Source: Octopus vulgaris (taxonomy: Eukaryota). Taken from it: a stretch of DNA of 64,000 nucleotides. A program made the translations under genes and the position numbers. This document shows positions 7,746 to 63,946 of the stretch, one piece after another (position 1 is the stretch's first letter; each line of letters starts with the position of its first letter). The stretch lies in NCBI GenBank assembly GCA_951406725.2, contig OX597818.1, forward strand, positions 36,642,001 through 36,706,000, in the 5' to 3' direction. Under the pieces are notes generated by a model. It was not told the DNA's origin, did no database searches, and worked only from the letters and a program-made list of their open reading frames with translations.

Positions 7746-8452
7746 GGCAAGAGAGGCAAAGAGACTGAGAGAAAGAGAGAGTGAAAGAAAAGAAGAGAAA
7801 TAAGGAAGAATCAATACCAGTAGAGGAATATTATTTATCGTCCAACCCGGACGATAAATTAGTTTTAACTCAGTGCGTAACTGCTCATCAGGCAGTTCAG
7901 AGAGCCTGAGGATCGGTTCCGTAAATCTTTGAGTGATGATTTGGGAAGTTGACGATCGTGTGCAATTTCTTTTAATTTGTTTGGCACCTGTGTGCTCACC
8001 TGTGCGTGTTTGTGTAGGAATTGCGAGCGCGCGTAAGTGTATGAATGTGTGCATTTGTGTATGTATGAGTTTGCGTGTTTACAGTAACAAGGTGCTAAAT
8101 GAACGATAATTTTTATATATATATTACACAAATCTGTGCTATAGTTTTGGATGGGTACAGCTGCTCCGCTAGAAGTTCGATCTTGCAATTTAGTTCGAAG
8201 TGGCTTCATTGCTACCACACGCATTGACTTGAAAATTAAAACACTTCTTGAAGACTTGACCGCGCGTTGAGCAACGCCATGTATGACCTTCTGATGACAA
8301 ATAGAATTGCTTTCATTTGCAATCTTGTTACAACTAATCTGAATGTGCAACATATCAGAATGTTTATTTCTGGTCTTCAGTTAAGTTCAAACCAAATTCC
8401 AGCTGCCCTTCGCTATTTTGACAGTTTTGCTGTTTAGAAGTAACACAATATA

Positions 8453-9050
8453 TCTATTTCTTTACTACTCACAAGTGGCTAAACACAGAGAGGACAAACA
8501 AGGACGGACAAACGGATAAAGTCGATTGTATCGAACCCGAGTGCGTAACTGGTACTTATTTAATCGACCCCGAAAAGATGAGAGGCAAAGTTGACCTCGG
8601 CGGAATTTGAACTCAGAACGTACCGGCAGACGAAATACCTATTTCTTTATTACCCACAAGGGGCTAAACACAGAGAGGACAAACAAGGACAGACAAACGG
8701 ATTAAGTGGATTTTATCGACCCCAGTGCGTAACTGGTACTTATTTAATCGACCCCGAAAGGATGAAAGGCAAAGTCGACCTCGGCGGAATTTGAACTAAG
8801 AACGTACCGGCAGACGAAATACCTATTTCTTTATAACTCACAAGGAGCTAAACACAGAGAGGACAAACAAGGACAGACAAACGGATCAAGTCGATTGTAT
8901 CAACCCCAGTGCGTAACTGGTACTTAATTTATCGACCCCGAAAGGATGAAAGGCTAAGTCGACCTCGGCGGATTTTGAACTCAGAACGTAACGGCAGACG
9001 AAATACTGCTAAGCATTTCGCCCGGCGTGCTAACGATTCTGCCAGCTCGC
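8453..9050 (-). mobile_element. SINE family B head-to-tail trimer
   Basis: Three ~184-bp units joined at aaagaaatag|gtatttcgtctgcc (minus strand). Confidence 0.9.
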
Positions 9051-20624: not shown

Positions 20625-21178
20625 TCGATCCCAATCCTCAACTGGTACTTAATGTATCGACCCCAAGAAGATGTAAGGTAAAGTCGATCTCGGCGGAATT
20701 TGAACTCAGAACGTAGAGACGGGCGAAATACCGCTAAGCATCTCGTCCAGCGTGCTAACGATTCTTATTTCTTTGTTGCCCACAAGGGGCTAAACATAGA
20801 AGAGACAAACAAGGACAGACAAACGGATTAAGTCGATTACATCGACCCCAGTGCGTAACTGGTACTTAATTTATCGACCCCGAAAGGATGAAAAGCAAAG
20901 TTGACCTCGGCGGAATTTGAACTCAGAACGTAACGGCAGACGAAATACCTATTTCTTTATTACCCACAAAGGGCTAAACACAGAGGAGACAAAGAAGGAC
21001 AGACAGACGGATTAAGTCGATTATATCGACCCAATGCGTAACTGGTACTTATTCAATCGACCCCGAAAGGATGAAAGGCAAAGTCGACCTCGGCGGAATT
21101 TGAACTCAGAACGTAGCGCCAGACGAAATACCGCTAAACATTTTGCCCAGCGTGCTAACGTTTCTGCCAGCTCGCCGC
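20625..21178 (-). mobile_element. SINE family B trimer
   Basis: Units joined at aaagaaatag|gtatttc and aaagaaataag|aatcgttagc (minus strand). Confidence 0.88.
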
Positions 21179-37115: not shown

Positions 37116-37206
<91 letters not shown>

Positions 37207-37209
<3 letters not shown>

Positions 37210-37690
37210 AATGAATGTTTTTATATATAATGAACGTGAAATACAGGAAGGGACGAACACGGAACACAGACAAATCATTCGGAGCCTTCAATCTTCAGTC
37301 AGACACCGAATCATCATAGCAAATTTCGGCTGTTCAATTCTGATATTTGCTCCAACTCGGCCAGCCCCAAGAAAAAAAACTAAGCTGTAAGCATTAGATT
37401 TCTTGGTAGAAGACAGGAATGTGAACGCACAAGACGGATGTAAATACAAGAGACGAAAACGAAATTGAAAACAGTAATGAATAAACAAAATATATATAAC
37501 GGTGGTTGTCATACGACTTTAGACCAAATGAGACAGAAACAACAACAACATAGCAGCTGGCGTAGAAATAATTACCGTTTCGGTAGCGGGGACACATGTT
37601 GGTCGAGATACGATGGCCAACAGAATGGTTAAGAAGCAGCAGGTTGCAGGAGAGAGAGAGAAAGAGAGACAGAGAGAGAGGGAATCAATA
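37207..37690 (-). mobile_element. Permuted-hammerhead element, copy A
   Basis: TA-flanked; shares a structured domain (37276-37421) with 59078-59218 and 63102-63248. Confidence 0.75.
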
Positions 37691-48936: not shown

Positions 48937-49391
48937 TATATACACTTATATATATATATATAAATATTATAAATATATATTTATAATATATATCATATAC
49001 ATGTTTGTGTGCGAGCGTATGTGTGTGGCATTTTTGCTTTATATAATGTACTGCGCTCATAACTTTTGCTAACGTATCGCACTTTCTGACACACCGTTTG
49101 GAGTGTGTGTGTGCGCGCGCGCGTCTGTATGTACACGCACTCTCAGTCACGCAATTTCTTTCGTTTTGAAGACAGTATGGATATGAGGGATGTTGACCAA
49201 CTACGTATGGCCTCCCTCGGAAATAGCTACAGCTGGTCCATTTATTTTCTTCCTCCTCCCTCCCTCCCTCTCTCTTTCTCGCTCTCTCTCTCTATCTTTC
49301 CCTTTCTCTCTCCCATTTTATTACCTTATTTCGATAGTTTTGTTGTTATTGTGTCCGATGTCTGATGTTGTTATTGCTATCAGTGTTGTTA

Positions 49392-49844
49392 CTTATTTCT
49401 TTATTACCCACAAGGGTCTAAACATAAAGGGGACAAACAAGGACAGACAAAGGGATTAAGTCGATTACATCGACACCAGTGCGTAACTGGTACTTAATTT
49501 ATCGACCCCGAAAGAATGAAAGGCAAAGTGGACCTCGGCGGAATTTGAGCTCAGAACGTATAGACAGACGAAATACTGCTAAGCATTTCGCCCGGGGGTG
49601 GGGTAACGTTTCTTATTTCTTTACTACCCACAAGGGGCTAAACATAGAGGGGACAAACAAGGACAGACAAACGGATTAAGTCGATTACATCGACCCCAGT
49701 GCGTAACTGGTACTTAATTTATCGACCCCGAAAGGATGAAAGGCAAAGTCGACCTCAGCGGCATTTGAACTCAGATCGTAGCGGCAGAGGAAATACCGCT
49801 AAGCATTTCGCGCGGCGTGCTAACGTTTCTGCCAGCTCGCCGCC
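49392..49844 (-). mobile_element. SINE family B dimer
   Basis: Junction aaagaaataag|aaacgtta at ~49610. Confidence 0.88.
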
Positions 49845-54089: not shown

Positions 54090-54860
54090 GGCGGCGAGCT
54101 TGCAGAAACTTTAGCACGCCGGGCAAAATGCTGAGCGGTATTTCGTCTGCCGTTACGTTCTGAGTTCAAATTCCGCCGAGGTCGACTTTGCCTTTCATCC
54201 TTTCGGGGACGATTAAATAAGTACTAGTTACACACTGGGGTCGATATAATCGATTTAATCCGTTTGTCTGTCCTTGTCTGTCCTCTCTGTGTTTAGCCCC
54301 TTGTGTGTAGTAAAGAAATAGGTATTTCGTTTGCCGCTACGTTCTGAGTTCAAATTCCACCGAGGTCGACTTTGCCTTTCATCCTTTCAGGGTCGATTAA
54401 ATAAGTACCAGTTACGCACTGGGATCGATATAATCGACTTAATCCGTTTGTCTGTCCTTGTTTGTCCCCTCTGTGTTTAGCCCCTGTGGGTAGTAAAGAA
54501 ATAGGTATTTGGTCCGCCGCTACGTTCTGAGTTCAAATTCCACCGAGGTCGACTTTGCCTTTCATCCTTTCGGGGACTATTAAATAAGTACTAGTTACAC
54601 ACTGGGGTCGATATAATCGATTTAATCCGTTTGTCTGTCCTTGTCTGTCCTCTCTGTGTTTAGCCCCTTGTGGGTAGTAAAGAAATAGGTATTTCGTCTG
54701 CCGCTACGTTCTGAGTTCAAATTCCACCGAGGTCGACTTTGCCTTTCATCCTTTCAGGGTCGATTAAATAAGTACCAGTTACGCCCTGAGGTCGATGTAA
54801 TCGGCTTAATCCTTTTGTCTGTCCTTGTTTGTCCCCTCTGTGGCAGTAAAGAAATAAGAA
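54090..54860 (+). mobile_element. SINE family B tetramer (184-bp unit, 367-bp higher-order period)
   Basis: gtcgactttg at 54181, 54365, 54548 and 54732. Confidence 0.92.
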
Positions 54861-58979: not shown

Positions 58980-59682
58980 ACAAGAATGGAACAATAGCAC
59001 GAAACATCCAGACAGTTAGGTGATACAAAAAAGGGACAACATACAGGCAGACGATACAAAGAAAACAAGGACGGGTCATTCGGAGTTTTCTATCCTCAGT
59101 CGAGTTCCAGATTATCTTTGCAATTTCAGCTGGTTATACTCGAGATTGCCCCAATCTTGTCAGCCCCAAGGAAGAACTAAGCTAAGAGCATGCATTAGAT
59201 TCCTTGGAAGCAGCGATGTATACGAAAAGAAGGACGGAAAAAATAACGGAGAAATGTTACACAAATACAAATACAAATAACAGGGCATATCAACAGGTGT
59301 CTTTCGACTAAGGACGTCTTGAATTAAGCTGGCGTGTGTGGAAGAAAAGCCTTACGGCAGGGACCTAGGATTTGAAAGGCACAGAGAGAAATATAGATGT
59401 TGCACGGATGGTAGTCGAACCAAGAAAGGTCAGGTTTGGCCGAACACCGGTCATGTGGGGAGAGAAGAGAGAGAGGTAGAGGCAGAGAGATAGAAGAATT
59501 AAGGAGGGGCGAGAAAAATGAAAGGGACACAATGAAGTGAAGGAGGAGGGAAAGTAAACATAAAGAGAAGGCCAGGAAATGTGAGAGAGGGGGAACGAAA
59601 GAACAAAGAGCGGAATGAATGAAGGGCTGATAGAAAGATGGAAAAAATGAAAGAACAGAAAGAATAATAGAGTCGTACAAAA
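58980..59682 (-). mobile_element. Permuted-hammerhead element, copy B
   Basis: TA-flanked; structured domain at 59078-59218; shares gtctttcgac..aggacg with copy C. Confidence 0.75.
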
Positions 59683-62062: not shown

Positions 62063-62653
62063 CATTCTGTATCATTCACATGTTTTCATCAATCTATCTG
62101 GATTATCTGGGTAGGTTTATCTCAATCTCTCACTTTCGCTACGTCTTCCTTCCTTTCGTTCTTCCTTCTTTTACTCTTTCTTTCTTCATTTCCGTTCTTT
62201 TCATTCCCATTGTTTAAGCGCATCTCTCTCCCGCTCTCACACTCTACCTCCGACCATCCCTTTCCTCTATCTATCTCTCTCTCACTCAATATCCCTTCCT
62301 CCTCACTTTCTCTCCCTCCCCCTCTCTACTTCTCTCTCTCTCTCTCTCCCTCCCTCTCTCCTCCCTCTCTACTTCCCCCCTCTCTCTCTCTTCATATCTT
62401 GATATCTTGATATCTTAGAAATCTCAGATTCGCCACACAAATCACAATTCAGTTTCTCAACCATATTTTCTTTTTCTCTCTCTTTCCCCCTCTCTCTCTC
62501 TCTCTTTCTCCCTCTCTCTCTCTTTCTCTCTGTCTTATTTTCCTCTCACTATTATGTATATATATATATATATATATATAAATGTGACCGCATGTGTACC
62601 GTTGGCGATTTTTTTTCTCCGTCTTCCCTTCTTTGGATCTTTCCTTTTCCTAT

Positions 62654-62688
62654 GTTTCTGAAGAAGAGCTCCACTCGAAACGTTAAAC
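62654..62688 (+). ncRNA. Minimal hammerhead in a small TA-embedded element (62582-62790)
   Basis: gttt-CTGAAGA-a-gag-ctcca-ctc-GAAACGTT-aaac. Confidence 0.72.
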
Positions 62689-62785
62689 CCTTCTTCTTTC
62701 CTTCTTTCCTAGGCGTCCAATAATACTATACTTCTTCCACGTCCTCACGTTGTTGTGTTTTCTCTTTGTGTTTTCATGTTTGGAT

Positions 62786-62860
<75 letters not shown>

Positions 62861-62983
62861 ATCAGTCTTATCATTAAAGGCATGAAATGAAGATTAACTT
62901 TTCGGTTGATAACTGAAGAAGAGTTAGGATCCTTCTGTGCTTGTCCTCCTGTACGTTTTTTAGTATTTAATGCATTTTTCATT

Positions 62984-63020
<37 letters not shown>

Positions 63021-63025
<5 letters not shown>

Positions 63026-63946
63026 TAAACAGTAAAAATAATTACAGACATGGACAAGAACATGAAACGCCACAGAGACGACACAAGAACCACAGGACGG
63101 GACATTCGAAGCCCTCAGTCATCAGTCAAGAACCAGATCATCTTAGCAATTTCGGCTGATTAATCTTGAGATTGCTCCGATATGGGCAGCCCGCCAAGGG
63201 AAATCTAAGCCAAGTGCATTAGATCCCCTGGAAGAAAGCTTCGAATGTATACAACACGAGGACGGAAAACGAACGAAGTACACGAACAAAAATACAGAAT
63301 ACGTGACAACAATAAGAATACAAAAACGTAAAAACAATAACGGTAAAATAAAGTATAAAAAATAAACAACAAAACAAAACCAGGACGTAGGACAAGGGTC
63401 TTTCGACAGGACGAATTGAGTATGGGGCTGGCTTATGAAGTTGTGCCTAATGGCCACAGGGAGACGAACAAGTACGTGTTGCTTCAGCGGCTGCTGGAAC
63501 GAAAAGAGCGCTCAACAGCGGCTAGCGGTCACGTGAGAACAAAAGACAAGAGAAAGGGACAGATGAAAAGAGAGAGAAGGTGGACGAGGGAGGAGAAGAA
63601 AGAGACAGATCGAGGGGGCTGGAGGTGAGAGAGATAGAGAAACGTAGAAGGGGGGGGAAGACGGATGGAGAGGGAAAGAAAGGAGGGGGAATAAGGGAGG
63701 AGAGAGAGAGAGAGAAAGAAAGATTAAGAGTCGTATCAATGCTTGAGAAAAAATATACTTATCGTATAAGGACAAATGTGGATACGTAGCCGCCGATTAT
63801 ATAGGTAAACAGTAAAAATAATTACAGACATGGACAAGAACATGAAACGCCACAGAGACGACACAAGAACCACAGGACGGGACATTCAAGCCCTCAGTCA
63901 TCAGTCAAGAACCAGATCATCTTAGCAATTTCGGCTGATTAATCTT
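63021..63946 (-). mobile_element. Permuted-hammerhead element, copy C: 780-bp unit plus 146-bp terminal direct repeat
   Basis: 63021-63167 is repeated at 63801-63946 (1-bp indel); (TA)n flanks; structured domain at 63102-63248. Confidence 0.85.

Follow-up and report, generated by a model that had tools for sequence, protein, structure and literature searches.

One close described counterpart of the ribozyme analyzed here is the type-SGC hammerhead, represented by HRIMA-1 and its variants (Eckert et al. 2023, PMC10085705). In these RNAs the cut site precedes the GAAA box and the GAAA box precedes the CUGAnGA box, a short linker joins stem I to stem II, and a helix bridges the other ends of the two stems. 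The repeat in this study has the same order of boxes, the same core letters, a similar short linker and a similar bridging helix. Unlike the type-SGC RNAs as that report presents them in the parts drawn on here, its stem II 5' strand does not follow CUGAnGA, and it carries an additional helix V and hairpin VI and resides in an animal retroelement. The same parts of the report treat the CUGAnGA-stem II block as uninterruptible and describe type-SGC RNAs from metatranscriptomes, with none from the genomes of known organisms. The arrangement predicted here would extend the six published hammerhead permutations, which assumed that this block is unbreakable, and would place a non-circular permutation in an animal genome.

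Animal non-LTR retrozymes are the second point of comparison. As described in the portions of the two reports used here (Cervera and de la Pena 2020, PMC7229834; Li, Clavereau and Pollet 2026, 10.64898/2026.07.22.740005), they consist of non-coding tandem units with one hammerhead each, occur as monomers to multimers, and are proposed to be non-autonomous partners of Penelope-like elements. The repeat family of this study, designated F1, resembles them in these respects, and its unit length lies within the retrozyme range of 51-972 bp (10.64898/2026.07.22.740005). In contrast, the hammerheads of the published retrozymes are of type I, as were the descriptors used to find them, so descriptor-based ribozyme and retrozyme surveys would have missed a split-core class. 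Circular RNA has been demonstrated for animal retrozymes, whereas the F1 repeat is known here from genomic DNA alone.

The third group comprises the Penelope-like elements, for which a pattern of insertions with a fixed 3' end is described in the consulted parts of two papers (PMC8557442, PMC11167929) and circles are proposed, in those of a third, as the origin of tandem copies (PMC4209133). Among them, Naiad elements (Craig et al. 2021, PMC8557442, in the sections used here) resemble the F1 repeat in (TA)n targeting, a fixed 3' end and partial tandem copies. Unlike the F1 repeat, which encodes nothing, Naiads encode a GIY-YIG endonuclease and a reverse transcriptase (RT), and the likeness of fold was judged by eye only. 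The minimal hammerheads in the pLTRs of Penelope and Neptune elements (Cervera and de la Pena 2014, PMC4209133) lie near the 3' end, as here. According to the passages used, they are type I ribozymes with short stems and often have one extra base between positions 9 and 10.1; in the F1 repeat, by contrast, this is the place where the whole domain begins and ends. Neither this split-core wiring nor a genomic test of 5' ends was found in the literature searched on permuted hammerheads, Penelope pLTRs and retrozymes, which included few subscription papers.

The window copy and its families

The window is the entire 64,000-nucleotide stretch that was analyzed. Positions within a unit are numbered so that +1 is the first base 3' of the predicted cut. 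The insertion near the end of the window has the following parts:

63018..63946, minus strand: whole insertion of the young, head-to-tail family F1, about 930 bases, 1.19 units of 780 non-coding nt
63798..63946, minus strand: 5' partial unit, +3 to +152, which forms the terminal redundancy and holds the 3' half of the ribozyme only
62984..63023, strand not assigned: (TA)n target at the fixed 3' end, overlapping the unit's internal TATATA

Positions 63798-63946 and 63018-63167 agree at 149 of 150 bases, and the period is 780; the single difference is base 63108 of the full unit, which the second copy lacks. The duplication of 63801-63946 and 63021-63167 originally reported at this period is in the same register, less the overlap with the (TA) tract. 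In the full unit the predicted scissile bond lies between 63170 and 63169 on the minus strand. The 3' end of the window copy is at +152 of the next unit, where it runs into (TA)n. Its 5' end on the minus strand, 63946, corresponds to +3 relative to the AUC|U cut predicted in the upstream unit, which bears out the claim that the element starts 2 nt downstream of the predicted cleavage. Under a uniform model the chance of a single start within 2 nt of the cut is about 0.6%, a value that applies to a copy chosen after the fact, so the family-wide test of 5' ends carries the weight.

The 2.8-Gb genome was searched with a 27-base piece of the ribozyme, which gave 499 exact matches; the wider F1 family has about 3400 matches (289 + 3107). 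The first 100 of the 499 matches, once tandem neighbours were merged, were mapped as 84 independent insertions, a sample that requires +11 to +37 to be intact. The 3' end was at +152 in (TA)n in 76 of the 84. Across copies the common 3' end lies 146-152 nt past the predicted cut and the 5' ends are variable; 3' ends fixed in (TA)n were likewise found in families F3 and F7. The F1 insertions thus show a fixed 3' end, 5' truncation, partial tandem units and (TA)n targets, the signature of Penelope-like insertion, and the retrozyme or Penelope-type anatomy that had been put forward for this copy was borne out. Since the same fixed 3' end, variable 5' end and partial tandems recur at 84 independent loci on three contigs, the duplication in the window is not, in any likely sense, an assembly artefact.

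The units are non-coding and tandem with one ribozyme each, as in retrozymes, and their lengths are 780, 718 and 835 nt among the families. No long open frame was found in the F1 unit, where the longest ATG frame is 68 aa, and none in F3 either. The largest arrays hold six ribozyme copies. Subfamily markers were common to all units in 20 of 21 multi-unit insertions, a private substitution was present in both units in 5 of the 21, and in one array six units were identical over 266 nt. The remaining multi-unit insertion (1/21), L035, is a mosaic that combines units from two subfamilies, and a circle of one unit therefore cannot have been the template in every case. The shared markers are compatible with a unit circle copied in a rolling fashion, but transcripts from uniform arrays would give a similar picture. 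Contigs from four sequencing runs cover the stretch, in a form that does not bear on ends, strand or circles.

Three relatives of the F1 copy were located in the window:

59049..59279, minus strand: family F2, older, with the same fold and a different stem I
37200..37690, minus strand (boundaries approximate): family F3, young, with a 718-nt unit and an AUA cut
62860..62985, plus strand: 5'-truncated relative of family F4 with a GUC cut, tail to tail with the F1 window copy

The F4 copy starts about 6 nt before its own predicted cut, lacks one stem III base and shares its (TA)n tract with the F1 copy. Families F4 to F7 were found in the flanks of other copies and beside the window copy. In addition, a separate short element at 62580-62790 on the plus strand ends in (TA)n and contains, by eye, a canonical minimal type I hammerhead that is not reported by Rfam (core 62658-62664, GAAA 62677-62680, a palindromic loop III and a predicted cut after 62684). 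A SINE-like unit of 184-240 bp forms head-to-tail arrays at 2114-2783, 8450-9006, 20766-21132, 49388-49815 and 54137-54842, which are partial tandems like the F1 window copy.

Base pairing of the predicted ribozyme

The predicted domain in the full unit is composed as follows:

63102..63248, minus strand: complete predicted ribozyme domain, closed by helix V
63234..63248, minus strand: helix V 5' strand, 15 bp with 63102-63116, present in the centroid fold; 1 of 300 shuffles as good
63194..63231, minus strand: hairpin VI, with 2 nt between it and the stem II 5' strand; equalled by 1 of 200 shuffles
63187..63191, minus strand: stem II 5' strand GGCUG, upstream of the cut block and not after CUGAUGA
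63179..63185, minus strand: helix IV 5' strand, bridging stems I and II and pairing with 63133-63139; two-sided changes at 3 of 7 pairs
63170..63176, minus strand: stem III 3' strand and AUC triplet, cut at 63170/63169, where 5' ends pile up
63164..63169, minus strand: stem I 5' strand, pairing with 63126-63131; 4 of 6 pairs changed on both sides
63145..63158, minus strand: stem II 3' strand CAGCC, GAAA box and stem III 5' strand
63119..63131, minus strand: stem I 3' strand and CUGAUGA core box

The original prediction described this domain as a permuted hammerhead. The permutation itself stands, as the blocks in the RNA follow the order cut site, GAAA, CUGAUGA (S-G-C); the description has to be amended in that the wiring is odder, the stem II 5' strand coming from upstream. 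Along the strand the order is V-VI-II5'-IV5'-III3'-cut-I5'-II3'-GAAA-III5'-IV3'-I3'-CUGAnGA-V. Types I, II and III (C-G-S, G-S-C and S-C-G) were rejected on this order, and a type III reading was also rejected because no partner for stem III comes after the later GAAU/GAAA. Rfam gave no match at gathering score within the 64-kb window. The CUGAnGA and GAAA boxes are present in the representatives of all families from F1 to F7, with U, A, G or C at position 7, and the NUH triplet is AUC in F1 and F2, AUA in F3 and F5, and GUC in F4, F6 and F7.

In an alignment of 23 copies from F1 to F3, 92.2% of cells were paired and seven pairs had two-sided changes, none of them in stem II; because these are three related families, the shuffle counts overstate independence. 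Stem III has an extra paired A-U in F3 and differs in F4, F6 and F7, and the sequence of helix IV is different again in F4 to F7. A pair directly after A9 is impossible in 97 of 98 segments (68/68 in F1, 25/26 in F2 and 4/4 in F3). The strand that completes stem II sits 22-29 nt 5' of the cut and immediately precedes the helix IV strand. Stem II pairing is kept across four sequence pairs, GGCUG/CAGCC, GUGCC/GGCAC (F4), GAAGGC/GCCUUC (F6) and GAAGGA/UCCUUC (F7), and for this reason the upstream strand of stem II is regarded as settled. In F5, for which there are two copies, the upstream stem II is only 3 bp. In F4, 94% of cells were paired in 17 copies, a percentage no better than in column shuffles (77/500), and GUGCC/GGCAC is present in the full copies. 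A search for stem II variants that excluded C before GAAA returned mostly CpG-decayed copies.

The two additional helices vary in how well they are supported across families. All eight representatives have a hairpin ending 0-2 bases ahead of the stem II 5' strand. It was matched by no more than 4 of 200 shuffles in five of them and by 11 in a sixth, and in F4 and F5 it could not be told from shuffles. Helix V is formed by the bases after A9, which pair farther upstream over 15 bp in the window copy and 10 bp in F4. In the family test it beat shuffles in F1 and marginally in F3, and was no better than shuffles in F2 and F5 to F7 within the upstream window tested. Nothing rose above shuffles with an upstream window of 32 nt, which was too short. 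The base-pairing scheme described here is very probably correct as a model. The core is predicted to be that of a type-SGC hammerhead with a break between A9 and G10.1, at which helix V and hairpin VI are inserted.

Insertion 5' ends at the predicted bond

The original prediction held that truncation points would not be uniform around the predicted site if the ribozyme is active. Across the 84 insertions they form a sharp step. Fifteen 5' ends fall at +1 to +10, where 1.8 were expected (P about 8e-10), and none of the 84 falls at -24 to -1. The fifteen comprise four at +1, one at +4, one at +7, five at +8 and four at +10. Position +1 alone accounts for 4 of 90 at risk (P 3e-5), and the start hazard at +8 and +10 is 4-5% versus 0.35% per base at TA/AT elsewhere; in the subfamily to which the window copy belongs, +8 and +10 reach the height of +1. 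Most 5' ends are preceded by T, TA or AT. An earlier sample of copies that demanded the whole ribozyme was left out of this histogram, as it excludes copies starting at the cut. The other 69 of the 84 copies start elsewhere than at +1 to +10. Copies that stop at the cut indicate a cut template and copies that read through indicate an uncut or re-ligated one, and thus most templates were uncut or re-ligated.

The step was also seen in the wider family. Genome-wide, the C before +1 was absent in 289 F1 copies versus 3107 that read through. Inspection of 30 copies without the base before +1 identified 23 true 5' ends and 7 point variants. Among junctions with TATA on the reverse strand, 92 of 246 fell within 3 of 31 offsets, at the cut. 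Exact starts, counted by hand among the 76 loci listed, numbered 71 at +1 versus 5 at -3, although -3 offers a longer (TA)n microhomology. In 24 of the 71 junctions at +1, also counted by hand, the preceding bases were T, TT or TG. For this reason, and since F3 has no TCTC, slippage on the TCTC at the cut was rejected as the source of the +1 starts. The main sample needs +11 to +37 intact, and a comparison with +33 to +62 was therefore made: TATA junctions in reverse-strand copies numbered 74 of 454 at +2 to +31 versus 11 of 402 at +33 to +62 (P 5e-12), on the assumption of one reverse-strand match per locus, as the matches listed show.

The excess of 5' ends at the predicted cut suggests that the ribozyme cuts in living cells. 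The insertion ends would record that cut and provide genomic evidence on in vivo cutting by Penelope-type hammerheads. In contrast, one in vitro study of an Anolis element found hammerhead cleavage dispensable for insertion and, in the results drawn on here, no reads ending at the cut (PMC11167929). A ribozyme-made RNA 5' end had been proposed for the window copy in particular. At the level of the family the proposal agrees with the step at the predicted bond; for the window copy the 5' end is probably derived from cleavage, though not certainly, because +3 lies in the shoulder of the peak and on the second lap, where enrichment is weaker. By hand count, 1 of 17 other multi-unit copies reaching that lap stops at +1 to +10.

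The other families repeat this signal to different degrees. In F3, whose cut triplet is AUA, unlike the AUC of F1, 13 of 24 listed junctions are at the cut (P 2e-6; a hand count with a 3-base ambiguity). F7 has no BLAST similarity to F1 and no spike at +1, with 4 of 36 listed loci there versus 5 at -3 and 5 at -8. It joins at +8, however, in 8 of the first 100 matches, versus none among those listed for the same contig at -8, where the microhomology is stronger, and all three of the +8 junctions inspected were true. F2 starts at +1 in 5-6 of 34 listed loci (P 0.02-0.07) and at its +6 microhomology in about 3% (51 candidates versus 522, with 4 of 12 inspected being true ends). For F4 the corresponding test gave 16 loci, mostly an internal TATA, and thus no usable signal. 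Thus F1 and F3 have a step at the bond, F7 a partial signal and F2 a weak one.

Some individual loci have unusual starts. At loci L260 and L085, which begin at +1, the unit's first 10-25 bases occur once more just ahead of the copy, as if the reverse transcriptase had met the end of the RNA and re-primed. At three of the 84 loci (L048, L227 and L258) the 5' end is at -25 to -27, the base of hairpin VI, which is a possible stall site.

Parent elements, rival readings and proposed mechanism

A search for autonomous Penelope elements with the same domain had been suggested. None was found: by tblastn, no RT/GIY-YIG frame lies upstream of any ribozyme copy fetched, and no S-G-C ribozyme was found attached to an autonomous parent at 30 GIY-YIG loci and 10 wider regions. 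A ribozyme at L158 was rejected as that of a parent, being a separate F1-type copy on the opposite strand. The genome does contain many intact 781-aa frames with RT, a C-terminal GIY-YIG domain and a CX4CxxC linker, which are of the Neptune type (148 of 150 candidates scored, out of 6136, were matches). Such elements at L151-L160 (e.g. L151:1745-4087) are apparently active and have an overlapping upstream frame of up to 479 aa without a Pfam match.

For Naiads, the consulted parts of Craig et al. 2021 (PMC8557442) report the lack of canonical hammerheads, eight elements flagged "half core" in the supplement, and long inactivity in cephalopods. The last approximately 330 characters of 42 of the 54 consensus records in that supplement were viewed by eye. 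Six of the 42 ends read in the order of the window ribozyme with stems I-IV paired: Obim, Ovul, Esco, Anas, Movir-2 and the record before Anas (Aacu by table order). By eye, Esco has one stem II mismatch and the last-named record has mismatches. The six hosts are two corals, a box jellyfish, two octopuses and a bobtail squid, and among the six elements two are flagged "HHR_half_core" and one "HHR_core" in the supplement. Nematode Naiad ends have the canonical order by eye; the remaining ends have other motifs or nothing in view. The same fold therefore appears to be present in Naiad retrotransposons, a candidate answer to why these elements seemed free of hammerheads, and Naiad is the most likely parent clade. 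Whether Naiad is also the present-day mobiliser is an even call.

The step of 5' ends could in principle arise without cleavage, from (TA)n microhomology, a bias toward short insertions or stalling of the reverse transcriptase, the ribozyme being a silent relic. The T, TA or AT before most ends would fit such an origin, as would the microhomology sites at +8 and +10, the lack of a clear +1 spike in F2 and F7, and the three ends at the base of hairpin VI, from which stalls seem to exist. Equivalent microhomologies upstream are, however, used 10- to 15-fold less (-3 versus +1, and -8 versus +8 in F7), shorter lengths (+33 to +62) are rarer and not commoner, the 24 junctions with T, TT or TG before +1 cannot be slipped -3 junctions, and at +1 all downstream strands would already have been copied, leaving no helix to cause a stall; this explanation is very unlikely. 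If +1 were instead a transcription start site, a hard 5' end would likewise be expected, but the start would have to coincide with the fold-predicted NUH bond in families that differ in it (AUC in F1, AUA in F3), which makes this source highly improbable. The fold itself could be an ordinary type-SGC hammerhead, with stem II formed by a GGCU five bases past CUGAUGA and a 5-nt bulge at A9. This 4-bp pairing is possible in 49 of 68 F1 and 4 of 4 F3 segments, the families with the clearest spikes, and F2, where the spike is weak, has no downstream GGCU pairing. Yet the pairing is absent not only in F2 but also in F4, F6 and F7, where the upstream strand covaries; in F1 the downstream GGCU bases are held in the 15-bp helix V, and the upstream duplex is the more stable, with -7.3 versus -4.8 kcal/mol for the downstream one. 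We regard the ordinary type-SGC fold as scarcely probable.

The pairs could also form between two units or molecules, a strand-swapped dimer being the active form and the single-chain topology not. Minimal Penelope hammerheads work as dimers (PMC4209133, as given in the sections used), the short loops that join helices III and IV on both strands may strain a monomer, a puzzle similar to one noted in the part of Eckert et al. drawn on here (PMC10085705), and most templates were uncut (69/84). Against a dimer, all strands lie within 150 nt, and in seven families their register is fixed. In addition, the 5' strand of stem II leads without a gap into helix IV as in type-SGC, and the Naiad consensus ends hold one complete domain. 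A dimer appears unlikely. A different question is whether the family, as described, is moved by the intact Neptune-type elements and not by Naiad. These elements are numerous, have TTTAC(A)-TATATA ends and run into (TA)n like the F1 repeat, and cephalopod Naiads are reported to be long inactive. On the other side, Neptune-type elements have no DNA similarity to the F1 repeat (best E 0.18), their own motif is by eye a type I hammerhead variant with the core UUGAUAA and not CUGAUGA, and the ribozyme fold points to Naiad ancestry. Because ancestry and present-day mobiliser can differ, movement by Neptune is compatible with the main reading, and we give it a serious chance, slightly short of even.

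The preferred reading, judged from sequence and with good though not full confidence, is that of a non-autonomous Penelope-like element of the retrozyme type whose hammerhead has a new topology. The unit would be inserted into a (TA)n microsatellite, with a Penelope-like element as the likely source of reverse transcriptase and endonuclease. Reverse transcription would start internally, with the unit's UAUAUA on the nicked (TA)n target. On cut RNA, cDNA synthesis would run off at +1 and the cDNA end would join the target there or at TA/AT microhomology at +3 to +13. On uncut or re-ligated RNA, whether multimer or circle, it would read through and give longer copies of more than one unit. The window copy would fit best a linear transcript cut only at the upstream ribozyme. 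We lean somewhat toward a broader proposal, in which the hammerhead split at A9/G10.1 would be a seventh natural wiring, hidden in a share of Naiads from cnidarians to cephalopods and in at least seven retrozyme families here. This ribozyme would cut in the germ line, as thousands of insertion 5' ends would record, and its extra helices would hold the ends of the unit RNA together for re-ligation into circles and rolling reverse transcription.

Two further observations concern other species. The Naiad ends of bivalves and a hemichordate share another conserved 3' motif with no hammerhead boxes in view, which may be another structured RNA. In addition, 41-49% of the words sampled from 63024-63530 occur in sequencing runs whose labels name four other organisms, and close relatives of the repeat may therefore occur in other species.
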